Assembly (NCBI RefSeq): GCF_024502345.1
Contig: NZ_JALDNN010000001.1
Direction: 5' to 3' (one strand)
Length of the DNA: 64,000 bases
DNA from: Escherichia coli
GTDB lineage: Bacteria; Pseudomonadota; Gammaproteobacteria; Enterobacterales; Enterobacteriaceae
Positions 1 through 43,199 of the stretch are shown piece by piece (position 1 is the stretch's first letter; each line of letters starts with the position of its first letter). The notes beneath the pieces are model-generated. The model ran no database searches and was not told where the DNA came from. It worked only from the letters and a program-made list of their open reading frames with translations. Position numbers and translations under genes: made by a program.

Positions 1-2277
1 ATGTCCGTTAAAGCCTCCGGGCGTTTTGTCCCTCCGTCAGCATTTGCCGCAGGCACCGGTAAGGCGTTTACCGGTGCTTATGCATGGAACGCGCCACGCG
101 AGGCTGTAGGGCGCGAAAGACCTCTTACACGTGACGAGATGCGTCAGGTGCAAGGTGTTTTATCCACGATTAATCGCCTGCCTTACTTTTTGCGTTCGCT
201 GTTTACTTCACGCTATGACTACATCCGGCGCAATAAAAGCCCGGTGCACGGGTTTTATTTCCTCACATCCACTTTTCAGCGTCGTTTATGGCCGCGCATT
301 GAGCGTGTGAATCAGCGCCATGAAATGAACACCGACGCGTCGTTGCTGTTTCTGGCAGAGCGTGACCACTATGCGCGCCTGCCGGGAATGAATGACAAGG
401 AGCTGAAAAAGTTTGCCGCCCGTATCTCATCGCAGCTTTTCATGATGTATGAGGAACTCAGCGATGCCTGGGTGGATGCGCATGGCGAAAAAGAATCACT
501 GTTTACGGATGAGGCGCAGGCTCACCTGTATGGTCATGTTGCTGGCGCTGCACGTGCTTTCAATATTTCCCCTCTCTACTGGAAAAAATACCGTAAAGGG
601 CAGATGACCACGAGGCAGGCATATTCTGCCATTGCCCGTCTGTTTAACGATGAGTGGTGGACTCATCAGCTTAAAGGCCAGCGTATGCGCTGGCATGAAG
701 CGTTACTGATAGCTGTCGGGGAGGTCAATAAAGACCGTTCTCCTTATGCCAGTAAACACGCCATTCGTGATGTGCGTGCGCGCCGCCAGGCAAATCTGGA
801 ATTTCTTAAATCGTGTGACCTTGAAAACAGGGAAACCGGCGAGCGCATCGACCTTATCAGTAAGGTGATGGGCAGTATTTCTAATCCTGAAATTCGCCGG
901 ATGGAGCTGATGAACACCATTGCCGGTATTGAGCGTTACGCCGCTGCAGAGGGTGATGTGGGGATGTTTATCACGCTGACCGCGCCGTCAAAGTATCACC
1001 CGACTCGTCAGGTCAGAAAAGGCGAAAGTAAAACCGTTCAGCTTAATCACGGCTGGAACGATGAGGCATTTAATCCAAAGGATGCGCAGCGTTATCTCTG
1101 CCGCATCTGGAGCCTGATGCGCACGGCATTCAAGGATAATGATTTACAGGTCTACGGTTTGCGTGTCGTCGAGCCACACCACGACGGAACGCCGCACTGG
1201 CATATGATGCTTTTTTGTAATCCACGCCAGCGTAACCAGATTATCGAAATCATGCGTCGCTATGCGCTCAAAGAGGATGGTGACGAAAGAGGAGCCGCGC
1301 GAAACCGTTTTCAGGCAAAGCACCTTAACCGGGGCGGTGCTGCGGGATATATCGCGAAATACATTTCAAAAAATATCGACGGCTATGCACTGGATGGTCA
1401 GCTCGATAACGATACCGGTAAGCCGCTTAAAGATACTGCCGCGGCTGTTACCGCATGGGCGTCAACGTGGCGCATCCCGCAATTTAAAACGGTTGGACTG
1501 CCGACAATGGGGGCTTACCGTGAACTACGCAAATTGCCTCGCGGCGTCAGCATTGCTGATGAGTTTGACGAGCGCGTCGAGGCTGCACGCGCCGCCGCAG
1601 ACAGTGGTGATTTTGCGTTGTATATCAGCGCGCAGGGTGGGGCAAATGTCCCGCGCGATTGTCAGACTGTCAGGGTCGCCCGTAGCCCGTCGGATGACGT
1701 TAACGAGTACGAGGAAGAAGTCGAGAGAGTGGTCGGCATTTACGCGCCGCATCTCGGCGCGCGTCATATTCATATCACCAGAACCACGGACTGGCGCATT
1801 GTGCCGAAAGTGCCGGTCGTTGAGCCTTTGACTTTAAAAAGCGGCATCGCCGCGCCTCGGAGTCCTGTCAATAACTGTAGAAAGCTCTCCGGTGGTGATA
1901 CTTCGTTACCGGCTCCCACACCTTCTGAGCACGCCGCAGCAGTGCTTAATCTGGTTGATGACGGTGTTATCGAATGGAATGACCCGGAGGTCGTGAGGGC
2001 GCTCAGGGGGGCATTAAAACACGACCGGAGAACGCCAAACCGTCAGCAAAGAAACGGAAGCCCGTTAAAACAGCATGAAATGGCACCATCGGCCAGACTG
2101 ACCCGGTCGGAACGAATGCAAATTACCCGTATCCGCGTTGACCTTGCTCAGAACGGTATCAGGCCGCAGCGATGGGAGCTCGACGCGCTGGCGCGTGGCG
2201 CGACCGTAAATTATTACGGGAAATCTTTCAATTATCAGGTCGCTGATGAGTGGCCTGGATTTTTGTTACCCATTTGA
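1..2277 (+). CDS. A: P2 gpA rolling-circle replication initiator endonuclease (758 aa)
   Basis: Begins MSVKASGRFVPP like P2 gpA; HUH-type motif TPHWHMMLF and catalytic tyrosine motif GYIAKYISKN seen in translation. Confidence 0.9.
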   Translation: MSVKASGRFVPPSAFAAGTGKAFTGAYAWNAPREAVGRERPLTRDEMRQVQGVLSTINRLPYFLRSLFTSRYDYIRRNKSPVHGFYFLTSTFQRRLWPRIERVNQRHEMNTDASLLFLAERDHYARLPGMNDKELKKFAARISSQLFMMYEELSDAWVDAHGEKESLFTDEAQAHLYGHVAGAARAFNISPLYWKKYRKGQMTTRQAYSAIARLFNDEWWTHQLKGQRMRWHEALLIAVGEVNKDRSPYASKHAIRDVRARRQANLEFLKSCDLENRETGERIDLISKVMGSISNPEIRRMELMNTIAGIERYAAAEGDVGMFITLTAPSKYHPTRQVRKGESKTVQLNHGWNDEAFNPKDAQRYLCRIWSLMRTAFKDNDLQVYGLRVVEPHHDGTPHWHMMLFCNPRQRNQIIEIMRRYALKEDGDERGAARNRFQAKHLNRGGAAGYIAKYISKNIDGYALDGQLDNDTGKPLKDTAAAVTAWASTWRIPQFKTVGLPTMGAYRELRKLPRGVSIADEFDERVEAARAAADSGDFALYISAQGGANVPRDCQTVRVARSPSDDVNEYEEEVERVVGIYAPHLGARHIHITRTTDWRIVPKVPVVEPLTLKSGIAAPRSPVNNCRKLSGGDTSLPAPTPSEHAAAVLNLVDDGVIEWNDPEVVRALRGALKHDRRTPNRQQRNGSPLKQHEMAPSARLTRSERMQITRIRVDLAQNGIRPQRWELDALARGATVNYYGKSFNYQVADEWPGFLLPI

Positions 2278-2537
2278 GTAAAAATGCAGCGTGATTTTAT
2301 ATGCCTTTGAATGGATTATGCGAAGCGCCTCTAAGGCAGATGAGGAGCAATAGCATGCTGAAGTAGAAGGCTAAATTGTATTGAATCGCTAGCATGTAAT
2401 TTAAGGCAGCTATTTGATTCGAGTCATAAAAGAGCATCTATTTCGGCTAATAAAACCATTGCGAGTGACCTTTTGTCGAAGCATAATTCATCTCGAGCGA
2501 AGTCTTGCTAGTCTTTCATCGGAATGATGACAGGCGC

Positions 2538-2568
2538 AAAAAAACCACCCTGGCAGGTGGTTTTTTTG
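2538..2568. terminator. Bidirectional rho-independent terminator
   Basis: A-run, inverted repeat aaccacc/ggtggtt with loop ctggcag, then T-run (aaaaaaaccaccctggcaggtggttttttt). Confidence 0.6.
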
Positions 2569-2579
2569 TTTGAAGCATA

Positions 2580-2693
2580 CTAAAGAATAATACTTACATG
2601 GATATTACTGACGTTTACTGACAAACCACTTGGACTACCATATGGATAGCCAAAGAGGGCCAGAACGAGAATGCAGTAATAGCACTTCTTCAT
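2580..2693 (-). CDS. Hypothetical small hydrophobic peptide, 37 aa (MKKCYYCILVLALFGYPYGSPSGLSVNVSNIHVSIIL)
   Basis: ATG preceded by SD-like GGAGGAGAT; ORF ends just before the bidirectional terminator at 2538-2568; start overlaps stop of upstream minus-strand ORF 2690-2935 (ATGA); below the 60-aa cutoff of the ORF track. Confidence 0.25.
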   Translation of the reverse strand: MKKCYYCILVLALFGYPYGSPSGLSVNVSNIHVSIIL

Positions 2694-3263
2694 ATCTCCT
2701 CCTGTAAGCAGAGGGCAATTTCCGCCGATATATGCGCTTCTAAGGCGGAGTTACTATTTAGCGAAGTCTTGCCCTGAAATAATGCTCTGTTTAAACGCAA
2801 AGTGATCTGGCATATCACCGAACAGAGAGCCTGAACAACACAACATATAGTATGTCGTTGTTTCTGGTTGCATTTTATGTTGTGTAATACTGGTTTTGCA
2901 TCAAGGATGTTTGAGCTTTTTTTGATATAGCTCAAAGTAAAAAGCAGGGACTACGGATGATAAGGTATTGAAAGCAATGTAAATTTTTTAAAGTTATTGG
3001 TGGCTAAAAAATGCACGGTTTCAATATGGCGGACTTAAATAAGCAATTAAAAAAGTCATAAATATCACTAAAATCATGGTGTTACGTTTTTTGTGGGAGC
3101 TGCGGTGACGCTTAAGTTGATTTGTCATTAAATAAGCCGTGCATGCAACAAGTGAATGTTTTTGCATGCGTCGGGGATGCCCGTTCCAGCTGCTTGCGGT
3201 CAGAGCTGGTGCGGATCCATAGTATCTATGCAACTGCATTAAAACCGACTCATGAAGCGGGCG

Positions 3264-3282
3264 GGCGAGGCGGGGAAAGCAC
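3264..3282. other. cos: P2 cos cohesive-end sequence (19 nt GGCGAGGCGGGGAAAGCAC)
   Basis: Exact string present between gene A and Q, where cos lies in P2; the 19-nt sequence is recalled from P2/186 literature. Confidence 0.6.
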
Positions 3283-3421
3283 TGCGCGCTGGCGGTGGTG
3301 CTGATTTTATTTTTTCAGCGTCTGAGCGCGTCGTGAAGGCGTTTACTTGGCCTGCTGGGCGTTGGTGTGTCTGCGGGGTGTTTTGTGCGGTGGTGAGCGT
3401 GTGAGGGCGTGATGGCGGGGT

Positions 3422-3450: not shown

Positions 3451-4485
3451 TCAGCCGTTGTCAGTGTCCAGTGAGTAGTTTTTAAAGCGGATGACCTCCT
3501 GACCGAGCCAGCCGTTTATCTCGCGGATCCTGTCCTGTAACGGGATAAGCTCATTGCGGACAAAGACCTTTGCCACTTTCTCTATATCACCCAGCGACCC
3601 GACGTTCTCCGGCTTGCCACCCATCAACTGAAAGGGGATGCGGTGCGCGTCCAGCAGGTCTGCGGCGCTGGCTTTTTTGATATTAAAAAAATCATCCTTC
3701 GTTGCCACTTCACTGAGCGGGATAATTTTAATGCCGTCGGCTTTCCCTTGTGGGGCATAGAGAAACAGGTTTTTAAAGTTGTTGCGGCCTTTCGACTTCA
3801 CCATGTTTTCGCGGAGCATTTCGATATCGTTGCGATCCTGCACGGCATCGGTGACGTACATGATGTATCCGGCATGTGCGCCGTTTTCGTAATACTTGCG
3901 GCGGAACAGCGTGGCCGACTCATTCAGCCAGGCAGAGTTAAGGGCGCTGAGATATTCCGGCAGGCCGTACAGCTCCTGATTAATATCCGGCTCCAGCAGG
4001 TGAAACACGGAGCCGGGCGCGAAAGGTGTCGGCTCATGGAAGGACGGCACCCACCAGTAAACATCCTCTTCCACGCCACGGCGGGTATATTTTGCCGGTG
4101 AGGTTTCCAGTCTGATGACCTTACCGGTGGTGCTGTAACGCTTTTCCAGAAACGCATTACCGAACACCAGAAAATCCAGCACAAAGCGGCTGAAATCCTG
4201 CTGGGAAAGCCACGGATGCGGGATAAATGTCGAGGCCAGAATATTGCGTTTGACGTAAATCGGCGAGCTGTGATGCACGGCAGCACGCAGGCTTTTCGCC
4301 AGACCGGTAAAGCTGACCGGCGGCTCATACCATCTGCCGTTACTGATGCACTCGACGTAATCCAGAATGTCACGGCGGTCGAGTACCGGCACCGGCTCAC
4401 CAAAGGTGAATGCCTCCATTTTCGGGGCGCTGGCGGTCATTTTTTTTGCCGCAGGTTGCGGTGTTTTCCCTTTTTTCTTACTCAT
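3451..4485 (-). CDS. Q: P2 gpQ portal protein (344 aa)
   Basis: 344 aa, same length as P2 Q; position next to cos and terminase P; stop overlaps P region. Confidence 0.9.
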   Translation of the reverse strand: MSKKKGKTPQPAAKKMTASAPKMEAFTFGEPVPVLDRRDILDYVECISNGRWYEPPVSFTGLAKSLRAAVHHSSPIYVKRNILASTFIPHPWLSQQDFSRFVLDFLVFGNAFLEKRYSTTGKVIRLETSPAKYTRRGVEEDVYWWVPSFHEPTPFAPGSVFHLLEPDINQELYGLPEYLSALNSAWLNESATLFRRKYYENGAHAGYIMYVTDAVQDRNDIEMLRENMVKSKGRNNFKNLFLYAPQGKADGIKIIPLSEVATKDDFFNIKKASAADLLDAHRIPFQLMGGKPENVGSLGDIEKVAKVFVRNELIPLQDRIREINGWLGQEVIRFKNYSLDTDNG

Positions 4486-19877: not shown

Positions 19878-21692
19878 TCACTTCTTACATAGAATGCTGG
19901 GTTTTACTCCGTACTCAACACATGCACTCAAAAATGTATTTATAAGCCAGATTAGCTGAACAGTATAAGGTTTGGCTGACTGATTTCTCTTGATGATTTC
20001 CACCTCATCGATTAACATTTTTTTTCTTAAAAATGGAGCAGCTAATATTAACTCCCTACTAGTTTTCGGACTCTCATTAATTTTGTCAAGAGCTAACTCA
20101 ATGTCATTCCTGGAAGTGTCAATTGGTCTAATTCTACTAATCTGCGTTTGTAAATATTTTGAAGACCATTCATTATCATATTTATCAAGGTAAAGTTCTT
20201 TTGGTGAATGTAATCTGCCAATATTTTTTAAAGCTTGACTTATAACTTCATGAAATTTACTGGCGCCATAGCTCTCTTTTTTAATATATTTAGAATGAAT
20301 AAACTTTATGGATGGATTTCCTGTCGTGATATCCAGCACAATATGATCGGCCCACTCATCATTCATATCATCACAAATTACAATAGCATCTTTATTTGAA
20401 TAGATATTCTCCACTCGTCTAAATAGCGATCTCACTGGAAATCTTTTAATATTTTCTGGATAAGATTGTTTGTCATCTTTCTCTTTTTCCGATCTGATTG
20501 TTGAAAAATCAAAGCTATCATCAAAAACGGACAGGAAAATATTCAAATTATTTAACATCGTTTTATCTTCAAAACACGAACGACCATGATAGCAATATTG
20601 GGGGGAATCGAAGGTTATAGTGAATGGCTTAAACTTGTTAATATATTTACTAAGCGACATTAACTGAGAACCATTTTCACTAATCATTATACCATCGAGA
20701 TATTTGGATACTATAGTCACAACCTTAGTATTGAATCTCAGACGACATTTGAATTTGAATCTTAAATTGGTTAGCGTTTCACCATCTAAGAAATATGATG
20801 ATTTAAATCCATTGAAAAATTTGTCAAGTTCAACAGAACTTAACGTCACCGTTCCATGAGGCACATTTTTTGTTAGTGTAAAAGTATGGGACGTGCCACG
20901 CACCATATCATCCAACTCGCTAAGATCTATAAAAATAGCTTTTGGCTTGACTTTTTTTGCTAATAATTCACTCAAAGTAATAGGGGAAGAGAAACCTGCC
21001 ATTAGCTTACTTGACAAAGAGGCTGTGTTAGATAATTCATTTACTGTAGCTATTGCCCATGAGCAGAAATTAAAAAAATCCACTTTTTTATCTTTGTAGC
21101 CTATTCGTGAAGTATTTGGTGTTAAAGTAAATATGTCATTTCCTGTCTTGACTCTAAATGTCCCTGGAATTGAACGTCCAGTCGTGTTAGGAGAAAGAAT
21201 GCCACTTAGATTTTTTGCTTCCACTGTTCTATTTCTTATCACTGAATCTGACAGTGACATATTCCTCATGCTAATTTTTTCATACTCAGGATTCAGCCTT
21301 CCATTAAAATTTGAAAATTTATCAAACTCAAAGTATTCTATGAACCTTTCCAACTCGCTTTCAATTGCATCAACATTTTTCTTCGAAATTATTAAAAAAT
21401 CCTGAACCTCCAAGATCATTAGATACGCATACTTGCTTTCTGAAATGCTAGTGCCTTGTAGAAATGAAGGCTCTTCTAGAACTTTAAAAGACACCAAAGA
21501 GTAAGTTAAATTCCCATTATCTACAACAACTTCAGATTTAATTTTATTTATAAGAAAGACACCATCTTTTATCGAGGATATGCTTCTAAATAGATTTTTT
21601 ATTTTATTTCTAGATAAAGGTTTTTTTATCTTAAAAAATTGTGCATTTTTTGATAAAATTAAATCATTGATACTGAAAATATATTTAGTCAC
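19878..21692 (-). CDS. Orphan AT-rich protein of unknown function (604 aa), prophage hotspot cargo
   Basis: Long uninterrupted ORF in very AT-rich DNA; GTG start 8 nt after AAGGA; no Walker A, no YxDD box, no HNH seen by eye; C-terminal segment AIVICDDMNDEWADHIVLD...IKFIHSKY could be a nuclease-like acidic/basic cluster. Confidence 0.6.
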   Translation of the reverse strand: MTKYIFSINDLILSKNAQFFKIKKPLSRNKIKNLFRSISSIKDGVFLINKIKSEVVVDNGNLTYSLVSFKVLEEPSFLQGTSISESKYAYLMILEVQDFLIISKKNVDAIESELERFIEYFEFDKFSNFNGRLNPEYEKISMRNMSLSDSVIRNRTVEAKNLSGILSPNTTGRSIPGTFRVKTGNDIFTLTPNTSRIGYKDKKVDFFNFCSWAIATVNELSNTASLSSKLMAGFSSPITLSELLAKKVKPKAIFIDLSELDDMVRGTSHTFTLTKNVPHGTVTLSSVELDKFFNGFKSSYFLDGETLTNLRFKFKCRLRFNTKVVTIVSKYLDGIMISENGSQLMSLSKYINKFKPFTITFDSPQYCYHGRSCFEDKTMLNNLNIFLSVFDDSFDFSTIRSEKEKDDKQSYPENIKRFPVRSLFRRVENIYSNKDAIVICDDMNDEWADHIVLDITTGNPSIKFIHSKYIKKESYGASKFHEVISQALKNIGRLHSPKELYLDKYDNEWSSKYLQTQISRIRPIDTSRNDIELALDKINESPKTSRELILAAPFLRKKMLIDEVEIIKRNQSAKPYTVQLIWLINTFLSACVEYGVKPSILCKK

Positions 21693-29213: not shown

Positions 29214-30575
29214 TCACTTACCGTGTGGGTTACGCGTGGTTTCCCCGGAGAAATTACGCATCAGCAGCGCGTAATTTAGCTCAAGATCCTGCGGCACCGG
29301 GAGCCACACAGTATAACCATCGCCTGGTGCTACCGGCATAGCTTCGCCTTTGGCGTTTTCCATGTGCTCAAGGGTAAAGTTAATGTTGCCTTGCGGCGTC
29401 ATCAGCTCAAGGCTGTCGCCAACGGAGAATTTATTTTTCACTGCTACCGCCGCGAGGTCCCCCTTGCGCTCACCGGTAAACTCACCAACAAACTGCTGGC
29501 GGTCAGAAACCGAATAACCGTATTCGTAGTTCTGATAATCGTCGTGAGTATGACGACGCAGGAAACCTTCGGTATAGCCACGATGCGCCAGACCTTCCAG
29601 AGTTTCCAGCAGGCTGGTATCGAACGGTTTGCCCGCAGCGGCATCATCGATAGCTTTACGATAAACCTGTGCGGTGCGTGCGCAATAGTAGAAAGATTTA
29701 GTACGGCCTTCGATCTTCAGCGAATGCACGCCCATTTTGGTCAGGCGCTCAACGTGGGCGATGGCACGCAGATCTTTCGAGTTCATAATGTAAGTGCCGT
29801 GTTCGTCTTCAAACGCGGTCATATACTCGCCCGGACGCTGGGCCTCTTCGATCATAAACACTTTGTCGGTTGGCGCGCCAATACCAAGCGTCGGCTCAAC
29901 GTTTTGCACCGGAATCGGCTCGTACTTGTGTACGATGTTGCCGACGTCATCTTCTTTACCTTCCTGTACGTTGTACTCCCAGCGGCAGGCATTGGTGCAG
30001 GTTCCCTGGTTCGGGTCGCGTTTGTTAATGTAGCCCGAGAGCAGGCAGCGGCCGGAGTAGGCCATGCACAGTGCGCCGTGAACGAAGATCTCGATCTCCA
30101 TATCCGGCACCTGATTGCGGATCTCTTCAATCTCTTCCAGCGACAGCTCGCGAGAGAGGATCACGCGGGTCAGGCCCATTTGCTGCCAGAATTTCACCGT
30201 CGCCCAGTTTACGGCGTTAGCCTGCACCGAGAGGTGGATCGGCATTTCAGGGAAGTGCTCACGCACCAGCATAATCAGCCCTGGATCGGACATAATCAGC
30301 GCATCCGGCCCCATTTCCACCACCGGTTTCAGGTCACGGATAAAGGTTTTCAGCTTGGCGTTGTGCGGGGCAATGTTGACCACGACATAAAACTTTTTCC
30401 CCAGCGCGTGGGCTTCATTGATGCCGAGCTGAAGATTTTCGTGGTTGAATTCGTTGTTGCGCACACGCAGGGAGTAACGCGGCTGGCCCGCATAAACAGC
30501 ATCTGCGCCATAAGCGAAAGCGTAACGCATATTTTTCAGCGTTCCCGCCGGGGAAAGGAGTTCCGGTTTAAACAT
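29214..30575 (-). CDS. yegQ: U32-family peptidase-like protein YegQ (453 aa)
   Basis: 453 aa; MFKPELLSPAGTLKNMRYAFAYGADAVYAG N-terminus typical of U32 family. Confidence 0.9.
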   Translation of the reverse strand: MFKPELLSPAGTLKNMRYAFAYGADAVYAGQPRYSLRVRNNEFNHENLQLGINEAHALGKKFYVVVNIAPHNAKLKTFIRDLKPVVEMGPDALIMSDPGLIMLVREHFPEMPIHLSVQANAVNWATVKFWQQMGLTRVILSRELSLEEIEEIRNQVPDMEIEIFVHGALCMAYSGRCLLSGYINKRDPNQGTCTNACRWEYNVQEGKEDDVGNIVHKYEPIPVQNVEPTLGIGAPTDKVFMIEEAQRPGEYMTAFEDEHGTYIMNSKDLRAIAHVERLTKMGVHSLKIEGRTKSFYYCARTAQVYRKAIDDAAAGKPFDTSLLETLEGLAHRGYTEGFLRRHTHDDYQNYEYGYSVSDRQQFVGEFTGERKGDLAAVAVKNKFSVGDSLELMTPQGNINFTLEHMENAKGEAMPVAPGDGYTVWLPVPQDLELNYALLMRNFSGETTRNPHGK

Positions 30576-30677
30576 AATTCTCTCGTTCTGATGACAGGTC
30601 AGATCCGCTTCACCTGATGAAGCGGTTAGGGGAGTGCCCCCACTTTAAGGGCGGGCATTGTAGCGCAATCGGCGGGT

Positions 30678-30974
30678 TTAGCTCCAGTGTAAATGTCTGG
30701 TGGCGTCCTGGTTTTGGTTAAGGATACGAATGACGATAATTTCCCCTGGTGATTGCAGGAAATAAATTACGTGGCGTTCAAAAGGAAGAACAAAAATACC
30801 TTCGCCTAATTCAGGTCTGGGCGTACCTATATTATTGTTACTCAGAATCTGGAGAACGTCTGAAAGATGTTCCACATATCTGTCGGCTTGTGGTTCGCCG
30901 AAATGGTGATAACTGTAATACCAGATGCCTTCTAAATCCTCATTGGCTTTTGGCATGAGTTTAATAATACGCAC
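30678..30974 (-). CDS. ParE/RelE-family type II toxin (98 aa)
   Basis: About 100 aa, directly downstream of and 1 nt separated from a small RHH antitoxin-like gene; ParE-like sequence character. Confidence 0.6.
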   Translation of the reverse strand: MRIIKLMPKANEDLEGIWYYSYHHFGEPQADRYVEHLSDVLQILSNNNIGTPRPELGEGIFVLPFERHVIYFLQSPGEIIVIRILNQNQDATRHLHWS

Positions 30975-30975
30975 A

Positions 30976-31227
30976 TTATTTCCTTATCCCTGCTTTCACC
31001 TTCCGTAAAAACGCGTCCTTTTCCCACGGCTGAGCTTCACCACTACTCAACCCTTCTGCAAGCATGCCACGTAACGCTTGCAGGCGAGACTCTGCTTGCT
31101 TTTCTCGAAGTAAGCGCAGTGACTCACGGATCACTTCGCTTTGGGTGCGATAGTCGCCGGATTCAATTAAGGACTCGATAAATTCACGCAACTCATCGCC
31201 GAGATCAACCGTCATCGTTCTGGCCAT
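30976..31227 (-). CDS. ParD-like ribbon-helix-helix antitoxin (83 aa)
   Basis: 83 aa, N-terminal RHH-like segment, acidic C-terminal half; precedes the toxin. Confidence 0.6.
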   Translation of the reverse strand: MARTMTVDLGDELREFIESLIESGDYRTQSEVIRESLRLLREKQAESRLQALRGMLAEGLSSGEAQPWEKDAFLRKVKAGIRK

Positions 31228-31470
31228 GTTTATGCTCTCCTGTAAGTAAAAATCTTACATCAGTGTATGTCATAAACCGGATAGCGTCACGAAAAGTATT
31301 AGAAGATATTTTGGCAGATGAACATGTTCAGGAGGATAAGCATGGAGATGTTAAACAAAGAAAGCACAATGAGTATTCATCAGTGTCCACTATTTTAATG
31401 GCGCAGGTAAATAATTAAGCGTTATTTGGAAATAAAGCCGGACGCCAACAACCCACGCCCGGCATCGTAA

Positions 31471-31803
31471 TTACGTATTGTCTTTTACCGTCTGACTTGT
31501 GCCATTGGCTTTAACGGAGGCAATTCCGGTTTCACGAGATTGCGCGGTGGCGTACATCTGGCTGGAGCCGATAATTTGATGATTGGCGGCTTTCAGATTG
31601 AAATAGAATTTGCCGTTACTTGCCGTTTTTTTCTCATAGCGTTCTTCTTGCGGGCTGTTGCTACGCACCGACGCGATGCCCTTTTCCGCAGAGGCTTTTG
31701 AGGTATACAGCTCGCTGGTGAGGATAGTCTCACCATTGCCCGCTTTTAGCACAAACCGGAACTGATTATCACTGCTCTTACTGAGTTCAAACCAACCAGC
31801 CAT
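31471..31803 (-). CDS. yegP: UPF0339/DUF1508 protein YegP (110 aa)
   Basis: Start at MAGWFELSKSSDNQFRFVLKAGNGE; two tandem DUF1508-like halves. Confidence 0.85.
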   Translation of the reverse strand: MAGWFELSKSSDNQFRFVLKAGNGETILTSELYTSKASAEKGIASVRSNSPQEERYEKKTASNGKFYFNLKAANHQIIGSSQMYATAQSRETGIASVKANGTSQTVKDNT

Positions 31804-31993
31804 AATGACTCCTTGATTGAAATTGCTTATCGAAAACAGCATCTAAAGGTGCTGTTTACCGATTAAAGTATGAGCGATTTTCTGATGCCTGCCAGGGCGG
31901 AGAGATAATGTCAGTTTGCTGACCATGCGTGGGATAATGTTGCCGGATCTGGTCTGAACGCCATCTCCGGCTAACAAAGTAATGTCGCTAAAA

Positions 31994-32716
31994 CTAAACG
32001 ATGCGGCAGGCGTCGGCTTCCCAGCGGTAACCAACGCCGTAAACGGCGCGGATAAATGACTGTTCGGCGTCGAGAGATTCCAGCTTGCGGCGCAGGTTTT
32101 TAATGTGGCTGTCGATGGTGCGGTCGGTTACTACGCGGTAGTCGTCATAAAGATGATTGAGCAATTGCTCGCGGGAGAACACTTTTCCTGGTTCATGAGA
32201 GAGCGTTTTCAGCAGACGAAATTCCGCAGGCGTCAGGTCAAGCATTTTACCGCGCCATGAAGCCTGAAAACGACCTTCGTCGATAATCAACGGGCTTTCA
32301 GCATCCTGTTGCTGCAACTCGCGCTGCGGTTTGCAACGGCGCAAAATGGTTTTGACGCGCGCTACCACTTCCCGTGGGCTGTACGGCTTACAGATATAAT
32401 CATCTGCGCCAATCTCCAGTCCGAGCAGGCGGTCGATCTCTTCGATTTTTGCCGTGACCATCACGATAGGAATGTCAGAAAAACGACGAATTTCCCGGCA
32501 CAGCGTCAAGCCATCGGTACCAGGGAGCATCAGATCCAACAGGATCAGATCCGGTGGTGTCTGGCGCACATACGGCAGTACCTGATCGCCGTGGCTGATA
32601 AGCGTCGGCGCATAGCTCGCAGCACGCAGATAATCAATGAGCAACTGCCCCAGCTTCGGTTCATCTTCCACGATCAAAATACGCGGTGTGTTTTCGTCGA
32701 TTGGTAACTCGGTCAT
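31994..32716 (-). CDS. baeR: Envelope stress response regulator BaeR (240 aa)
   Basis: OmpR-family receiver plus winged helix; 240 aa; downstream of baeS. Confidence 0.95.
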
Positions 32717-34116
32717 ACTTCTCTCTGTAAATCCCGTTCCAGCGGTAACTCAACTGTAATGCTTACCCCGCCAAAAGGCGAATGGGCAGCAATAATGCGG
32801 CCATTATGTGCTTCAACAATGTTCAGGCAAATCGCCAGCCCCAGCCCGGAACCGCCGCTGGCACGGTTGCGGGAACCTTCGGTGCGATAAAAACGTTCAA
32901 ACAATTTTTGTAGCTGATCGTCACTGACACCTGGCGCACTGTCGGCAAAGGTCAGGCGCACCGTTTTGTCGTGTTGCTCGGCAGAGATTTTCAGGCTGCC
33001 GCCGCTGTCAGTGTAGCGCAGGCTGTTTTCAAGTAAGTTATTGAATAACTGCATTAAACGGTCGCGATCGCCAAATACGGTAATACTGTCTGGCAGGGAA
33101 AATTGCAGTTTCAGGCCACGGCTGGCGAATCGTTCGCGAAATGCGCCTCCCGCCACTTCCAGCAGTGGGATCAAATCTACCGGTGCTTTTTGATAGGCGA
33201 GAGCGCCTTCATCAGACATCGACAACTGATGGAGATCGTCAACCAGTTTGGTCAGTGTACCGACCTCCGCCTGTAAAGACGCCACCGTCTCCGGCGTGAA
33301 TTTACGCACGCCATCCTGAATGGCTTCCAGTTCACCGCGCAGCACCGCTAATGGCGTACGCAGTTCGTGAGAAATATCGGCCATAAAATCGCGCCGCATT
33401 TGCTGGTTTTTCTCCAGCGTGCTGGCAAGCTGGTTGAAGTCTTGCGCCAGTTTGCCCAGTTCATCTTCACTGGTGGGCGTTACGCGGGTAGTGAAATCGC
33501 CCGCCGCCAGTTTGTGCGTGCCGTCCACCAGCCGTTTGACCGGGGCCAAAAGGCCACGCGCCAGCAGAAAGGTGGCGAGCGCCGCGAGTAACGTTGCCAG
33601 GGCGACAATCAGCCAGCTGGTTTGCCGCTGTTGTTTATCGAAATTGATATCAGTATTGCGGGTCAGCCGCTCAACGGGGGAGGCAATCACCGCGCCCACT
33701 TCCGCACCGTTGACCAGAATGGGTCGCCGTGTACCGTCAGGTGGAATCGGCGCTCGCGGACCAACCAGCACCTTGTTGTTTTGATCAACCACCCAGAACT
33801 GAGTACGCCAGCCGTGTGGTGGCATACCCGGGCCGGGTTTATCTTCCGAATTATCGTGTTCAAATGAACGCAGGATCTGAAAGACAAAACGATCATTGTT
33901 GCGCAGGAAGCGCCAGTTGCCATGCTGCGCATACTGCTCGCCAAGCGCATCACTTAACAGTTGTAATCGCTGTTCATTACCATGCTTGATGTAATCAATA
34001 AAGCCACGCTCAAAACTGATACGCACCGCCCAGTGCATACTGATCAGCAAGACAATGCAGGTGGCGAAAATCGCCAGAAACAGTTTGCCGGTAATACCGG
34101 GTCGCCAGAACTTCAT
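32713..34116 (-). CDS. baeS: Sensor histidine kinase BaeS (467 aa)
   Basis: Two TM segments, HAMP, H-box SHELRTPL, ATPase domain; 467 aa. Confidence 0.95.
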
Positions 34117-35528
34117 TGCGCGCTCCTTTTTCGCCGCGAAATAGCTACATTTTGATGCGTATCGTTCGGCACTCTGGCAAAGATGAACGCCGGAAGGGCG
34201 ATGATAAACGCCATGCTAAGCCAGGTGTACATAAAGACGGTTTGTGTGGTGCCGCTGTCGACGCTGACATGCTGCGAACCAAAAAGTCCCAGCAACAGCC
34301 CGGCGATGGTGACGCCGATACTCATCGACAATTGCATAATCATCGACAGCAGACTGTTGCCGCTGCTCGCCAGATTGTCCGGGAGATCTTTCAGCGTCAG
34401 GGTGTTCATGGAGGAGAAACGGGTCGAGTTGACCATCCCTTGTAAAAACAGGACGAACGGCAAAACGTAGTACCAGCCCAACAGAGCGGTAGTCATAAAC
34501 AACAGGGTGACCAGCGACAGACCCTGCGTGGTCGCTACCAGTACCCGACGATAACCAAAGCGATTCACCACCTGTACCACAATTCGCTTCATTCCCATGC
34601 TGCCAAGCACCATCGGGATCATCATCAGTCCGGCATGAAACGGTGAGAAGCCAAGGCCAATTTGCAGGAAAACTGGTGTCATAAAGGGCAACATGCCGCT
34701 ACCGATACGTCCGGCAAAGCTCCCCGCCAGGCCCAGCGAAAAGGTACGAGTACGGAACAGTTTCAGACTGAACAGGGCGCGGTTGTTATTTCTGGCGTGC
34801 AGCAGATAAAGCACCAGTGCCACCACACCAACTGCGACCAGGCCAGCAATCGCCAGCGGCGATAAACCTGTACCTTTACTGCCGTCCAGCGCCAGGGTTA
34901 ATACCGCCATGCCAACCGCCAGCAATAAAAAGCCGGAAAGATCAAAGCGCCGCGTCTGCATGGTGTAGTTCGGCATTAACATCAATGTGGCGATCGCACC
35001 GATAATCCCCACCGGAATGTTGATCAAAAAGATCCAGTGCCACGACGCGTACTCCACCAGCAGACCGCCGAGCGCCGGACCGAGCAGCGGACCGACCTGA
35101 CCGGGTAACGTGACAAAGGTCATCGCCGCCATATACTGCTCGCGCGGTACGATTTTCATCACCGTCAATCTGCCGACCGGCACCATCATCGCGCCGCCAA
35201 CGCCCTGTAACGCGCGTGCCAGCAACAATTCGTTCAGCGTGCCGGAAAGCGCGCAAAACAGTGAACCGAGAGTAAACAGCACGATAGCGGTAAAGAAAAT
35301 ATTGCGCACGCCGACTTTGTCCGCCAGCCAGCCGCTGGCGGGCAGCATCACCGCCACGGTCAGCACATAAGAGACAATGACCATGTGCATATGCAACGGA
35401 CTTTCCCCGAGGCTTTGCGCCATTGAGGGAAGGGCGGTGTTTACGATGGTGGTATCCAGCGACTGCATAAAGAAGCCGAAAGCCACAATCCACAATTGCC
35501 AACGGGTGCTGTCGGGAAGATCAGTCAT
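34113..35528 (-). CDS. mdtD: MFS transporter MdtD (471 aa)
   Basis: Multi-TM MFS protein, 471 aa, in mdtABCD-baeSR operon order. Confidence 0.95.
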
Positions 35529-38500
35529 TTACTCGGTTACCGTTTGTTTAGGTTTACGCGAAAAACGCAGCCGTAGACGGTCGAAAAAGAGATACACCAC
35601 CGGCGTGGTGTACAGCGTCAGGAGCTGACTCATTACCAGACCGCCGACAATGGTGATCCCCAAGGGTTGCCGCAGCTCCGAGCCGTCACCGCCCGACAAC
35701 ACCAGCGGCAGCGCGCCAAACAGCGCCGCCAGGGTAGTCATCATAATCGGGCGAAAACGCAGCAGACAGGCCTGGAAAATAGCTTCCTTCGGCGTCAGGT
35801 TACCGTGCCGTTGGGCTTCAAGCGCAAAATCGACCATCATAATGGCGTTTTTCTTCACAATGCCGATTAATAGCATGATCCCTATCAGGGCGATTAGGCT
35901 GAACGGGGCATTGAACAGCTCCAGCGCCAGCAGCGCTCCAACGCCCGCCGAGGGCAGGGTGGAGAGAATCGTCAGCGGATGTACGTAACTCTCGTAAAGG
36001 ATACCCAGCACGATATACACCGTGGCGATGGCGGCGATAATCAGGAGCACCTGTGAGTTCATCGTCTCCTGGAACACCTGCGCCGTGCCGGCAAAACTGC
36101 CGCGCACCGTCGAAGGCACACCAAGCTGGGTCATTGCGCGATCGATCGCCGCACTGGCGTCCGAGAGCGATTTTCCGGTCGGCAGGTTGAACGAGATGGT
36201 CGAGGCTGCCGATAATCCCTGATGATTCACCGATAGTGGGGCATTCGCCGGTTGCCATTTAGCGAAATACGACAGCGGGATCGCTTTTCCTTCGTTATTG
36301 ATAACGAACATTTTTTCTAGCGCGCTGATGTCCTGGGTATAGCGCGGATCTACTTCCATCACCACTTTATACTGGTTCATCGGCTGGTAAATGGTCGAGA
36401 TTTGCCGCTGACCGAAGGCGTTATTTAACAGGCTGTTGGCGGCCTGTACGTCGATTCCCAGCCGTGCCATGGTGTCGCGGTCGTAAACCAGATTCATCTC
36501 CGCGCCGTTATCCTGCTGATCGGAGTTCACGTCCGCTAGTTCCGGCAATGTCGCCAGTTTTTTGCGGATTTTCGGCTCCCATTCGCGCAGTGCCGCCAGG
36601 TCGTCGGATAACAACGTGTACTGATAACTGGCGTTAGACTGACGTCCGCCAACGCGAATATCCTGTACCGCCATCAGGAACAGATTCGCCCCCGGTTCTT
36701 TCGCCAGCTTCACCCGCAGACGGTCGATAATTTGCTGCGCCGTTTCGCTGCGTTCGTCGCGTGGCTTGAGGGTGATAAACATCATCCCACTGTTAACTGG
36801 TGAACCGCCGGTAAAGCCGGTGACATTATCCACTGCCGGATCGTCACGGATAATTTTCATAAAATCCTGCAATTTGCCGCGCATCGCCTGAAACGAAATA
36901 CTCTGATCCGCCTGTATCCCGCCCATCAACACGCCAGTGTCCTGCTCCGGGAAGAAGGTTTTCGGGATCGAGATATACAGCCAGATATTCAAAGCAATGG
37001 TGCCAAGCAGCACCACGCCCACCAGACGGGTATGATTGAGCACCCATTTCAGCGACTTACCATAGCCTTGTTGCAGGGCTACCAACATTCGACCAAAACC
37101 ACGCAGTCGCTTTTGCTCGCGCGGCTTGCTGGCTTTCAGCATCCAGCCACACATCATCGGCGTTAATGTCAGAGAAACCAGCAACGAAATACCAATGGCG
37201 ACAGAAAGCGTCACGGCAAACTCGCGTAACAGTCGGCCCGGCAATCCGCCCATCAACAGCAGCGGCAGGAACACCGCCACCAGTGACAGACTCATCGACA
37301 GCACCGTAAAACCGACTTCGCGAGTACCTTGCAGTGCGGCTTGCAACGGTTTCATTCCCGCTTCCAGATGACGTGCAATGTTTTCCAGCACCACGATGGC
37401 GTCATCCACCACGAAACCAGTAGCGATGGTGAGCGCCATTAACGAAAGGTTATTGAGGCTGAATCCGCACAGGTACATCGCCGCAAACGTACCAATCAGC
37501 GAAACCGGCACCGCAACGGCGGGAATAATAGTGGCGCGACCCGAGCGTAGGAATAAAAACACCACCAGAATCACCAGCGCCACCGAGATAATCAGCGTTT
37601 GCTCGACTTCTTCCAGCGAGGCGCGAATGGTGGGGGAGCGATCCTGGGCAATTTGCAGATCAATCGCCGCCGGAATGGTTTCCTGCAACTCCGGTAATTT
37701 TGCCCGGATGCTGTCAACCGTCTGGATAATATTGGCTTCCGGCAGCTTGCGGATCATCAGCAAAATAGCCGGTTTGGCGTTGGTCATCCCGGCGTTGCGC
37801 ACATCCTGCACTGAGTCGGTCACCGTCGCCACATCACCCAGACGAACCGCGCCGCCGTTGTTGTAATGAATAATCAACGGCTGATATTCAGCGGCGGTTT
37901 TTAGCTCATCATTGGTCTGGATCTGCCAGCGGTGAGTGCCATCTTCCAGCGCCCCCTGCGGTTTACGCACGTTGGCATTGCTGATGGCAGTGCGTACGTC
38001 GTCCAGCGACACGCCCTGATTAAACAGCGCCTGCGGGTTCAGCCCGACGCGCACGGCGGGCAGCGAGCTGCCGCCGACATCGACATCACCGACACCGTCG
38101 ATTTGCGAAATCGTCGGAGCCAGCTGCGTCGAGGCGAAATCGTACAGTTCACCCTGCGAATAAGTATCGGATGTCAGCGTGAGGATCATAATTGGCGCAT
38201 CCGACGGGTTCGCTTTGCGATAGGTCGGACGGCTGGGCATCCCGCTGGGCAGCAAACTTTGTGCAGCGTTGATCGCCGCCTGCACATCGCGCGCCGCGCC
38301 GTTGATATCCCGGTCAAAATCAAACTGCAAAATAATACGCGTGCTGCCGAGCGAACTGCTGGAGGTCATTTCACTGACTCCGGCAATGCGCCCAAGTGAG
38401 CGCTCCAGCGGCGTGGCAACGGAAGACGCCATTGTTTCTGGTGACGCACCGGGCAGCGAGGCGCTGACCATAATCACTGGAAAATCGACCTGCGGCAGCG

Positions 38501-38606
38501 GGGCGACCGGCAGCATACGGAAGCCCAGTATGCCGCACAGGGTAATGGCAACCGACAGTAAAATCGTCGCCACCGGGCGGTAAATGAAGAGGGCAAAAAA
38601 CTTCAC
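35529..38606 (-). CDS. mdtC: RND multidrug efflux pump subunit MdtC (1025 aa)
   Basis: 1025-aa RND permease. Confidence 0.95.
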
Positions 38607-41600
38607 TTACGCCTCCTCTTCATGACGGGCAAAGCGGCTTTTGGTCCACAATGCCAGGCGGTCGAACAGCAAATAAATCACCGGCGTGGTAAACAGCGTC
38701 AGCACCTGGCTGATAATCAGACCGCCGACCATGCCGATACCTAACGGACGACGCAGTTCCGCGCCGACCCCGGTACTCAACATCAGCGGCAGCGCGCCAA
38801 GCAGAGCCGCCAGAGTGGTCATCAGGATCGGACGAAAACGCAACAGACAAGCCTGGTAGATTGCCTCGCGCGGCGACATGCCTTGCTCGCGCTCGGCAGC
38901 CAGCGCGAAGTCGATCATCATGATGGCGTTCTTCTTCACGATACCGATCAGCAAAATAATGCCGATAATCGCAATCACATCCAGTTCGCTACCAGCAATC
39001 AGCAACGCCAGCAGTGCGCCAACCCCTGCGGTGGGTAGCGTCGAGAGAATGGTGATCGGGTGAATAAAGCTCTCGTACAGAATGCCGAGCACGATATACA
39101 TCGCCACCACCGCCGCGACAATCAGCCAGACAGTGCTGCCCAGCGCCGACTGGAAGGCGAGGGTGCTGCCCTGGAACTGCGTGGTGATATCCACCGGCAG
39201 ATTCAGCGTCTTTTCGGTGTCCATAATCGCCTGCACCGCATCGCCCAGCGAATAGTTATCCGGCACGTTAAAGGAGATGGTCGTTACCGGGAACTGATCC
39301 AGATGGTTGATGGAGAGCGGCGCAAAACGCTGCTCAATTTTGGCAATTGAGCTTAACGGCACCACGCCACCATCGCTGCTGGTCAGGCGAATGGTATCCA
39401 GCGCCGCGAGGCCTGGGGTATTTTCGGTGTTGTGTTCCAGCACCACGCGATACTGGTTAGCCTGAGTATAAATAGTGGAAATCAGCCGCTGACCAAACGC
39501 GTTGTACAGGGCGTTATCGACATCCGCCATACTGATCCCCAGACGGCTGGCGCTGTCGCGATCAACATTGACATACGCCACCAGCCCTTTGTCCTGCCAG
39601 TCGCTGGAGACATCAGAAAGCTGTGGTAGTTGCTGGAGTTTTTCCATCAACTGTGGCACCCAGGTACTGAGCGCATCCAGTGACGTGGCCTGCAAGGTAA
39701 ACTGGTACTGGGTGCGGCTGACCTGAGTATCGATGGTCAGGTCCTGCGTTGGTTGCAGGAAGAGATCGACGCCCGGCAATTTATCCACCGCCGTTTGCAG
39801 ACGGGCGATGACTTTTTGCACCCGATCATCACGTTCATCCAGCGGTTTGAGGTTGATCTGCAAACGCGCACTGTTCAGCGACGGGTTAGTGCCATCAACG
39901 CCAACAAATGAGGTCAGACTTTGCACTGCCGGATCCTGCAAAATCACGTCCGCGACCTGGCGTTGCCGCTGGGCCATATTGGCAAAGGAGCTGGATTGCG
40001 GTGCCTGCAAAGTGCCCTGAATAATGCCGTTATCCTGTACCGGGAAGAAACCTTTCGGAATGAACACCCACAATAGAACGCTAAGCAGCAGCGTGCTGAG
40101 CGCCACGCTTAAGGTCAGCCACGGATGATTCAGCACTTTCGCCAGTCCACGACCATAGGCGGCGATTATCTTGTCGAACATTTTTTCCGAGGCACGGGAG
40201 AAGCGGTTCTGTTTACGCAACGACTCCTGGCTGAGCATCCGTGCGCACATCATCGGTGTCAGGGTTAGCGACACCACGGCTGAGATTAAAATCGCTACCG
40301 CCAGGGTAATAGCAAATTCGCGGAACAGTCGCCCGACGATATCGCCCATAAACAGCAGTGGGATCAACACCGCAATCAGCGAGAAGGTCAGCGAGATAAT
40401 GGTAAAGCCGATTTCACCTGCGCCTTTGAGCGCCGCCGCCAATGGTTTTTCGCCTTTTTCGATATAGCGGGAAATATTTTCGATCACCACGATGGCGTCA
40501 TCGACCACGAACCCGGTGGCGATAGTTAACGCCATCAGCGTCAGGTTATTGATTGAAAAATCGAGAAACACCATGACCGCGAAGGTGCCGATTAACGACA
40601 GCGGCACTGCGACGCCGGGAATGATGGTCGCCGGAATATTGCGCAAAAACAGGTAGATAATCATGACTACCAGCGCGATAGCCATCATCAATTCAAACTG
40701 AGTATCATCGACGGATGCGCGGATATTGGTGGTACGGTCAGAAAGTACCGTCACCTTCACCGATTTCGGCAGACTCTCGGTGAGCTGTGGCAGCATCTGC
40801 CGGATGCTGTCGGCGGTGGAGATAATGTTAGCACCGGGCTGGCGCTGAACATTCATCACAATGGCCTGTTCTTTGTTCGCCCATGCGCCGAGCCAGCTGT
40901 TTTCTGCACCTTGCTCTACGGTTGCGACATCGCCCAGACGAATCGGCGCGCCGTTCTGGTAGGCGATAATCAACTGGCGATATTCTTCCGCAGATTGCAT
41001 TTGGTCATTCGCGGAAAGCGTAACCGCGCGGGAAGGGCCGTCGAGGCTACCTTTTGCCGAGTTAACGTTAGCGCCGGTAATGGCGGTGCGCACGGTTTCG
41101 CTGGTCAGGCCGAGGGCGGCAATCGCCTGAGCGTTAAGTTTGACGCGAACAGCCGGACGCTGGCCGCCGGAAAGCGTCACCAGGCCGACGCCGGAAATCT
41201 GCGAGATTTTCTGCGCGACGCGGGTTTCCACCATATCTTCCACTTGCGTCATCGGCATGGCTGTTGAGGTGACGGCGAGCGTCATGATCGGCGGATCTGC
41301 CGGGTTCACTTTGCTGTAAACCGGCGGGTTAGGCAGATCGCTCGGCAACAAGTTGGTCGCAGCGTTAATCGCGGCCTGCACTTCCTGCTCGGCGACATCG
41401 AGCGGTAATGTTAGCTGGAACTGTAAAGTGATAACTGACGCACCGCCGGAACTTTGCGACGACATCTGTTTCAGGCCAGACATCTGCCCGAACTGGCGTT
41501 CGAGCGGCGCGGTAACGGCAGAGGTCATGACATCCGGGCTCGCACCTGGGTAGAGCGTGACCACCTGAATGGTCGGATAGTCCACTTCCGGCAGCGCCGA

Positions 41601-41729
41601 AACGGGCAGGGCGCGATAACCGATAATCCCGGCGAGTAAGATCGCCACCATCAGCAGCGTGGTGGCCACAGGACGCATAATAAACAGGCGCGACGGGCCG
41701 CCTGTGCTGCCCGGGGGTAACACCTGCAT
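38607..41729 (-). CDS. mdtB: RND multidrug efflux pump subunit MdtB (1040 aa)
   Basis: 1040-aa RND permease, paralogous to MdtC. Confidence 0.95.
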
Positions 41730-42976: not shown

Positions 42977-43199
42977 CGTTAAGAGTTTCTCTTCCTGAAA
43001 CGTTTCGCGGAATGATACTAGTGTAGCCAGCCAATAAGGGAGAAAAATGGAGGAATTATGAAACACTATCGGGAATCGTCTGAATGGCGGGCACATTTGC
43101 GAGCACGCATCCAGTAATAACACAGGAAACTATTTTATCTACGCGTTAGCGATAGACTGCTTGCATGGCGAAAGGAGGTAAGCCGACGATTTCAGCGGG

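Follow-up and report, generated by a model that had tools for sequence, protein, structure and literature searches.

Among the type I toxin-antitoxin systems of Escherichia coli, tisB/istR-1, zorO/orzO and dinQ/agrB employ a small RNA (sRNA) that pairs within the 5′ untranslated region (5′UTR) of the toxin mRNA. In the tisB, zorO and dinQ systems the sRNA gene is divergent and upstream and its terminator is not shared with the toxin mRNA, and the toxin promoters of tisB and dinQ are under SOS/LexA control. The hok/sok antisense RNA is encoded in cis, across the mok/hok 5′ region, and hok/sok has no shared terminator either. A different arrangement is found in par of pAD1 from Enterococcus faecalis, where the Fst toxin mRNA (RNA I) and the antitoxin RNA II run from convergent promoters into one shared bidirectional intrinsic terminator and owe their complementarity to DNA direct repeats transcribed in opposite directions (PMC7472228). 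Here we describe an E. coli locus of par-like layout, a 573-bp cassette at positions 2414–2986 of a 64-kb window (the whole stretch of DNA analysed, 64,000 nucleotides of contig NZ_JALDNN010000001.1), lying between replication gene A and the cos site of a P2-like prophage. The cassette, which the Prokaryotic Genome Annotation Pipeline (PGAP) leaves unannotated throughout, is predicted to encode a 37-aa hydrophobic peptide on the minus strand and a convergent sRNA on the plus strand, and it is read as working like a type I toxin-antitoxin module, yet it fits no existing family.

That the locus holds a functional peptide-plus-sRNA unit is very probable. Our preferred reading, to which we give a probability of about 0.6, is that 2414–2986 represents a self-contained, mobile, par-like module of the type I toxin-antitoxin type; judged from sequence, toxicity of the peptide together with its repression by the sRNA seems somewhat better than an even bet. 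Two general features of type I systems are present, namely a gene under selection for a small (<60 aa) hydrophobic protein, and at the same locus a predicted RNA complementary to the candidate toxin mRNA. An earlier sequence-only reading had left open whether this position was an empty hotspot or held a very small module; the first option has fallen and the second stands, in the form of a peptide gene plus a predicted convergent sRNA that recurs elsewhere. The cassette comprises the following features.

2414–2986: whole cassette, 573 bp, with sRNA gene, shared terminator, peptide gene, 5′UTR and nrdDG-type promoter
2459–2487, plus strand: sRNA promoter from a promoter scan, -35 TTGCGA, 17-nt spacer, -10 CATAAT
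~2495–2571, plus strand: predicted sRNA of ~77 nt, candidate antitoxin, its ends placed from promoter and terminator
2496–2508, plus strand: sRNA seed, direct-repeat copy 1, AGCGAAGTCTTGC, an exact 13-nt repeat of 2760–2772
2537–2568, both strands: bidirectional intrinsic terminator, a 13-bp perfect inverted repeat with A7/T7 flanks and loop CTGGCA at 2550–2555
2580–2693, minus strand: gene of the 37-aa peptide, product MKKCYYCILVLALFGYPYGSPSGLSVNVSNIHVSIIL, candidate toxin
2698–2715, minus strand: Shine-Dalgarno (SD) sequence AGGAGG (2698–2703) and upstream anti-SD box CCCUC (2711–2715), forming a local hairpin
2721–2749, minus strand: 5′UTR hairpin H2, UCCGCC...GGCGGA, from RNAalifold and pair counts
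2760–2772, minus strand: seed target in the mRNA 5′UTR, direct-repeat copy 2, ~65 nt upstream of the AUG
2785–2827, minus strand: 5′UTR hairpin H1, loop UGCCAG (2812→2807)
2838–2885, minus strand: candidate NrdR-box pair with 15-nt linker; box 2 ATACTATATGTTGTGT (2853→2838) is strong, the box 1 candidate ACACAACATAAAATGC (2885→2870) is weaker and overlaps the -10
2872–2877, minus strand: -10 hexamer TAAAAT (2877→2872), with a predicted transcription start near 2865
2891–2935, minus strand: two FNR-type sites, 31 bp centre to centre, proximal TTGATGCAAAACCA (2904→2891) and distal TTGAGCTATATCAA (2935→2922)
2936–3012, minus strand: sequence preceding the promoter, in which homology to the nrdDG upstream region continues (AAAGTAAAAAG..., ATGTAAATTTT)

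A short open reading frame (ORF) with an SD sequence in 1 kb of AT-rich DNA means nothing alone, and so it is the comparison that decides. A scan with the invariant 32-nt terminator gave 57 loci in metagenome and viral contigs, which after pooling with loci collected earlier make a total of 73 terminator occurrences; 40 unique cassettes were used for the comparisons of promoter, seed distance and loop. Every occurrence is accompanied by a minus-strand ORF of 37–39 aa, except one that is cut by a contig end, and the ORF is intact in 72 of 72 complete copies, in 17 variants. Synonymous sites are near saturation (proportion of synonymous differences pS 0.6–0.97 vs 0.17–0.30 for nonsynonymous pN), the dN/dS ratio is ~0.1–0.2 where it can be calculated, and variable sites are distributed 22/13/33 over the three codon positions. 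Being intact in every complete copy and under purifying selection, the 37-codon ORF (2693→2580), which the sequence-only reading had picked out for its strong SD, is therefore a gene. The variants share a basic N-terminus, an invariant Cys, a hydrophobic stretch of ~11 residues, a turn of the G-(S/G)-Q-S-(G/N)-W type and a C-terminal tail in which polar and hydrophobic residues alternate. Five peptide variants gave no match in NCBIfam (E ≤ 10) or Pfam (E ≤ 1), including the models of the Hok, Ldr, TisB, DinQ, Ibs, ShoB and ZorO toxin families, and the peptides had no match in PHROGs or in the defence protein models of PADLOC. A word-indexed protein search returned four Klebsiella hypothetical proteins, and an exhaustive HMMER search eight matches, two of which led to new cassette types.

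The second line of evidence is the pairing between the two predicted RNAs. At its 5′ end the sRNA repeats, over 13–18 nt and in direct orientation, a leader site 63–66 nt upstream of the start codon and, since the two copies are transcribed in opposite directions, the seed and target RNAs are complementary. The repeat varies between cassette types and matches within each of them (GAGCGAAGTCTTGC(C/T), ...TTGTCAC and GAGCAAAGCCTTACC). Over the resulting duplex of 13–17 bp, 94.7% of the cells are in standard pairs, compared to 28–45% in slid controls, and four pairs carry changes on both sides. Moreover, the one-sided differences in the duplex core (positions 4–17) are all G·U and never A·C, which argues for RNA pairing over a repeated DNA site. 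The predicted energy of the duplex is -29 to -39 kcal/mol, and within the 64-kb window no other match to the seed was found.

The mRNA leader shows a corresponding degree of structural conservation. Compensatory changes occur in five of the seven outer and two of the six inner pairs of H1, and four of the seven pairs of H2 are changed on both sides; for the two hairpins together, 92.9% of the cells are paired (slid controls 38–46%), 11 of 20 pairs have double changes, and none of 500 shuffles came up to these figures. It is only in the minus-strand sense that G·U pairs occur, indicating that the minus strand is the folded one. The H1 loop UGCCA(G/A) is found in 40 of the 40 unique cassettes and is the complement of the sRNA terminator loop CUGGCA, and with the seed target immediately 3′ of it, both contacts, loop to loop and seed to target, could be made at once. 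The SD is retained in all variants; it is paired with the upstream C-rich box in the local minimum free energy structure of most representatives, and in the full-length ensemble it is mostly paired (probability of being unpaired 0.03–0.40).

On the plus strand, the predicted sRNA promoter is nearly invariant among the unique cassettes, with the -10 CATAAT in 40/40, the -35 core TTGCG in 38/40 and a spacer of 17–18 nt, and exactly 7 nt separate the -10 from the motif GAGC(G/A)AAG in all 40. The sRNA consists of a single-stranded 5′ seed, a stem-loop that varies in sequence with its pairing kept, and the terminator hairpin; with RNAalifold (16 aligned of 20 unique variants) stem-loop 1 covaries and the terminator is invariant. 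This terminator, a 13-bp perfect inverted repeat that the sequence-only reading had correctly called bidirectional, would be common to the sRNA and the peptide mRNA as convergent transcripts, and it probably also ends transcription of the P2 early operon behind gene A. Its 32 nt are identical in all 73 copies, among cassettes that are overall only 67–75% identical. Such conservation exceeds what termination alone would need, and this excess fits a role of the loop in RNA-RNA recognition.

The promoter of the peptide gene is related to a core chromosomal one. In a sensitive search, 2895–3012 proved ~80% identical over ~118 bp to a locus that 5425 of 5426 E. coli genomes contain, which is the treC–nrdD intergenic region, i.e., the promoter of the anaerobic ribonucleotide reductase operon nrdDG, here facing the 37-codon ORF on the minus strand. 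The layout is the same (distal site, 31 bp, proximal site, 13 nt, TAAAAT), and NrdR-box cores can be made out by eye; the arrangement TTG-N7-TCAA, 31 bp, TT(G/A)ATGCAA..., 13 nt, TA(A/G)AAT recurs in 39 of the 40 unique cassettes, with a spacing exactly equal to that of K-12 nrdD. Unlike its model, the copy drives a 37-aa peptide instead of a ribonucleotide reductase, and in the window type a 10-bp insertion shifts the NrdR pair downstream, with box 1 and the proximal FNR half-site degenerate. The FNR consensus is TTGAT-N4-ATCAA, and the two sites of nrdDG, of which only the 31-bp spacing was measured here, are presumably those at -64.5 and -33.5.

The binding sites of NrdR in the nrdDG promoter are two 16-bp boxes with 15 bp between them (PMC12176259). 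The published nrdDG probe aligns with the cassettes, and their box cores match the bound probes, as judged by eye against the published nrdDG, nrdAB and nrdHIEF probes, without a scoring matrix (PMC12176259). Several cassette types have a box 1 core CTATAT(A/G)TAG that overlaps the proximal FNR site; in one of the types the core CTACAGGTAG, identical to nrdAB box 2, follows 15 nt downstream of box 1, and a canonical pair can be seen by eye in other types, for example CACTATATGTAG, 15 nt, then CCTACAGGTAGG. Activation of nrdDG by FNR is documented (Boston & Atlung 2003 and Roca et al. 2008, cited in PMC2892513 and PMC1805755). Given a copy of the nrdDG promoter with both FNR sites and NrdR boxes, anaerobic and deoxynucleotide triphosphate (dNTP)-dependent induction is to be expected, and FNR plus NrdR control of the peptide promoter is thus a well-founded prediction. 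The promoter block also varies between close relatives: the near-identical prophage lineages L009/L036 and L007 differ only in the block equivalent to 2828–2928, one being of the window type and the other diverged, with proximal site TTAATGCAAAGCCC and -10 TAGAAT, which points to mosaic recombination inside the cassette.

The limits of the cassette are given by pairwise comparison, as the 67–74% homology to Klebsiella plasmid and metagenome cassettes starts and stops at 2414 and 2986. Its core (2536–2866) is found on 151 E. coli chromosomes, 86–100% identical, at the gene A–cos position of P2-like prophages, i.e., in ~9% of the E. coli genomes with a P2-like gene A (151 vs 1681), and at 73–75% identity on ~400 large Klebsiella IncF plasmids. 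Salmonella and Citrobacter IncF plasmids carry the identical terminator inside a much more diverged version of the cassette layout, and two further peptide variants, found by the exhaustive HMMER search, are encoded beside Zot/secretin genes. Among species-representative genome contigs, a 19-mer from hairpin H1 gave one match, in Collimonas, which is a chance match, so that these genomes are without the cassette. The diverged cassettes of the Salmonella and Citrobacter IncF plasmids (L029, L030), of a Klebsiella-type plasmid (L011) and of L032–L034 include plasmid copies that adjoin Rpn-family nuclease genes, with a dinQ-annotated type I toxin gene ~1 kb away, and copies in metagenome and draft-genome contigs that lie beside filamentous-phage-type Zot/secretin genes. 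In many RefSeq E. coli chromosomes, the core stands at record coordinates 2536–2866, and these assemblies have evidently been rotated to start at the prophage replication gene, presumably because gene A was mistaken for the replicon start gene.

From these features we infer the transcript ends, repression as the direction of regulation, FNR/NrdR control and the toxicity of the peptide, and the following mechanism can be proposed. The minus strand would yield an mRNA of ~330 nt (~2865 to 2537) with a 172-nt structured leader, which alone should be translationally inert as its SD is locked in the local hairpin. A near-consensus promoter on the plus strand, probably constitutive, would produce the convergent ~77-nt sRNA ending at the same bidirectional terminator. 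The single-stranded 5′ seed of this sRNA (AGCGAAGUCUUGC) would pair with the direct-repeat site in the mRNA leader, and its terminator loop CUGGCA could kiss the UGCCAG loop of H1 just upstream of the seed target. Pairing would most likely block ribosome loading or trigger cleavage, as in tisB/istR-1 and zorO/orzO, and so keep the peptide off. More of the mRNA should be made in anaerobiosis, and likewise once NrdR is released by the dATP/ATP signal. For its prophage or plasmid, such a module would be an addiction or stress-triggered growth-arrest device.

Compared to the known systems, the cassette resembles par of pAD1 in its convergent promoters and single shared bidirectional terminator, in the complementarity created by direct repeats transcribed in opposite directions, in terminator-loop complementarity with a YUNR-type motif (CUGG in the cassette sRNA loop), in the SD-sequestering intramolecular stem-loop, in the size of the hydrophobic peptide (~33–39 aa) and in its location on mobile elements. 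It differs in that the peptide has no similarity to Fst, no PXXXG and no charged C-terminal tail; it has one repeat where par has DRa plus DRb, and this repeat does not cover the initiation region, being ~65 nt ahead of the AUG; the leader has an additional hairpin in which the terminator loop is duplicated; the candidate toxin gene has a regulated promoter, of the nrdDG type; and the hosts are Gram-negative. Without an Fst/Ldr motif or tail, and with no match to fstAT in Rfam at E ≤ 1, the cassette does not belong to the par/Fst family, and in the same Rfam search no antitoxin family came up, the weak matches to RNAI, Phe-leader and mir-363 being noise centred on the terminator. With tisB/istR-1, zorO/orzO and dinQ/agrB it shares 13–20 nt of complementarity far upstream of the ribosome binding site, a long structured leader, a full-length mRNA predicted to be inert and a stress-responsive toxin promoter; the peptide is unrelated to those of tisB, zorO and dinQ. 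Similarly, the coupling of a small peptide to an antisense RNA, the residence on plasmids and prophages, the SD-sequestering mRNA fold and the likely addiction logic are reminiscent of hok/sok, from which the cassette differs in its unrelated peptide, with no match to the Hok models of NCBIfam and Pfam.

Several points weigh against reading the cassette as a toxin-antitoxin module. The peptide is atypical for type I toxins, since its hydrophobic stretch is short (~11–13 residues), a charged C-terminal tail is absent and its C-terminal half alternates polar and hydrophobic residues; AlphaFold, run with a 16-sequence alignment, supports only a low-confidence helix at residues 3–15 with a predicted local distance difference test (pLDDT) score of 57, which is uninformative. 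The independent covariation events in the seed-target duplex are few, from ~5–6 lineages. With its target ~65 nt from the AUG, the sRNA is excluded from occluding the ribosome binding site directly, and the pairing may fit either sign, repression or activation. Other cassette types have a stronger proximal FNR site and a stronger NrdR box 1 than the window type, whose proximal site reads TTGATgcaaAACCA. Finally, a collection seeded with the terminator biases the cassette set towards complete copies.

The main rival explanation is that the peptide is a non-toxic accessory small protein, a so-called "moron," bound to the membrane or exported, its level tuned by the sRNA and its benefit to the host of lysogen or plasmid arising under anaerobic or dNTP-limited conditions, possibly through modulation of a membrane complex or through superinfection exclusion. 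The purifying selection on the peptide, the basic N-terminus, the ~11-aa hydrophobic stretch and a (V/A/I)-x-(G/S)|Q motif resembling a signal-peptidase site, followed by a 14–17-aa amphipathic, strand-like tail, are in line with this explanation, as are the lack of similarity to any known toxin family and a promoter shared with nrdDG and not with the SOS response, unlike tisB and dinQ. The signal-peptide-like N-terminus and the strand-like tail keep such a small envelope protein in play. However, tight dual control by an SD-sequestering hairpin and a dedicated, covarying antisense RNA is a type I toxin signature, a private sRNA is seldom carried by ordinary small proteins, and the cassette is found exclusively on plasmids, prophages and filamentous-phage-like elements; we therefore consider the accessory-protein explanation unlikely, if still deserving of attention.

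More specific, and held with little confidence, is the idea that the cassette is a nucleotide-pool-sensing switch for abortive infection or growth arrest. In the anaerobic gut FNR would be permanently active, so that NrdR would become the real trigger; NrdR would leave the DNA when the dATP signal falls, and a phage infection or other insult that upsets the dNTP pools would derepress the mRNA beyond titration by the sRNA, and the peptide would stop the cell. If true, this would explain why a ribonucleotide reductase promoter guards a toxin-like gene at the main P2 defence hotspot and on large plasmids. As a further speculation, with an N-terminus resembling a signal peptide and a tail resembling the amphipathic C-terminal strand of outer-membrane proteins, the peptide might act in the envelope and not as a classical inner-membrane helix.

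It is improbable that the sRNA itself is the main effector, acting in trans on mRNAs of the host or of competing phages, with the peptide mRNA as a decoy, sponge or secondary target. The promoter, seed and terminator of the sRNA are admittedly the most conserved parts of the cassette; however, the seed changes in step with its cis-encoded target, which would hardly be expected for a conserved external target, purifying selection acts on the peptide ORF as well, and the window holds no second match to the seed. That the hotspot is empty, its decayed cargo remnants or neutral AT-rich spacer producing ORFs and hairpins by chance, could be suggested by the AT-richness, the several spurious small ORFs and the absence of annotation in all RefSeq records, but it is already refuted by the comparative data, namely 67–75% identity across unrelated replicons with saturated synonymous sites and an intact ORF, compensatory changes in three helices and one intermolecular duplex, and an invariant promoter geometry.

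With the type I-like module as the preferred reading, its surroundings can be described. The interval between gene A and cos and its landmarks are as follows.

1–2277, plus strand: P2-type replication gene A, the window opening at its ATG
3112–3282, plus strand: generic cos-proximal sequence of P2-like phages, including cos and outside the cassette
3264–3282: cos, 19 nt, an exact match to the P2 cosR 19-mer GGCGAGGCGGGGAAAGCAC
3451–4485, minus strand: portal gene Q, a flanking landmark, with terminase gene P also on the minus strand beyond it

The distance from A to cos is 986 bp here, where P2 itself has orf91, tin and old, and, as the sequence-only reading had it, the interval is AT-rich (32–43% GC vs ~50–60% in the flanks), with no ORF longer than 81 codons. 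The position is that of the tin/old (TO) region of P2 and of the P2/P4 defence hotspot (gene A to cos/Q), and the content is likewise variable and horizontally exchanged. The interval was found in 183 of 5426 complete E. coli genomes, with annotation absent in every case. Identity to an unannotated stretch in related prophages, which the sequence-only reading had named as grounds against a module, is thus formally given, but the sequence proves to be coding and structured. Two phage genomes (three database records) and many prophages share the first ~840 bp and differ in the cargo that follows, and conservation within this stretch is uneven: 90–100% over 2530–2950 and only 72–86% over 2278–2500 and beyond ~2990. 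Lineage-specific spacer occupies 2278–2413 and 2987–3111, and the counterparts of 3112–3263 in phage 186, SEN1 and Yersinia phages are located at the ends of the genomes.

The description of the content as minimal is right for this prophage and does not extend to its relatives, in which the same cassette often precedes additional cargo genes. Two separate insertion points can be distinguished. At the junction between cassette and cos-proximal sequence (3112–3118), an ImmA/IrrE peptidase gene and two hypothetical genes are inserted; between cos and Q, joined right after cos at 3288–3290, there is either an AAA ATPase with a hypothetical gene (E. coli W and E24377A) or SIR2/IS5 (NMBU-W12E19). 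The homology breaks exactly at cos, suggesting cos-mediated joining between elements. Some relatives (L007, L009) lack an 80-bp segment, 3048–3127, which is bordered by a 10-bp direct repeat TTAAATAAGC (3035–3044 and 3128–3137), consistent with deletion between the repeats. Unlike the protein systems that are swapped in and out of this hotspot, the cassette is a stable resident beside gene A that coexists with the swapped cargo.

Other candidate features of the interval were rejected. The 81-codon minus-strand ORF starting with TTG is present at 2935→2690, as had been pointed out, but as the content of the interval it does not hold: it contains a stop in L007 and a frameshift in L009, and its start codon is part of the distal FNR site and precedes the predicted start of transcription, so that it must be regarded as spurious. 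Stops or frameshifts in relatives likewise disqualify a 46-aa ORF (2437→2297, minus strand) and a 37-aa TTG ORF on the plus strand (2414–2527), and a 39-aa ORF (2873→2754) starts ahead of the predicted transcript and has a frameshift in L009. A second direct repeat, D1 (2325–2340 and 2734–2749), was treated as chance because its left copy is not kept in L007 and L009.

Elsewhere in the window, a 604-aa ORF (19878–21692, minus strand) occupies the second P2 hotspot, the Z/fun position between the tail-fibre genes and FI, and matches the PADLOC candidate defence protein PDC-S71 nearly end to end (E = 1e-218), with no Pfam domain. The host genes to the right of the prophage (29214–43123) include ORFs whose size and order suggest baeSR/mdtABCD, and in the relative L010 the prophage adjoins yegR/yegS.

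A literature search of 8 million full texts returned nothing for the peptide, seed and terminator sequences, and the search for FNR-linked type I toxins gave nothing relevant. The hotspot survey of Rousset et al. (2022) took annotated proteins between gpA and gpQ (PMC9122126), and to surveys built in this way the cassette is invisible; surveys based on protein calls and routine annotation score the position as empty or ignore it, and the same unannotated gene pair is also carried by hundreds of clinical Klebsiella plasmids. If the pair is indeed a toxin and its antitoxin, both its peptide family and its sRNA would be new among the type I systems of enterobacteria, and it would provide a Gram-negative example of the par-type convergent architecture with a shared terminator. 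A copied, FNR/NrdR-controlled nrdDG promoter on a mobile toxin-like gene would be an unusual piece of regulatory piracy, and expression predicted to occur only without oxygen and upon a change in dNTP signalling would explain why such a module has been missed in aerobic laboratory screens.

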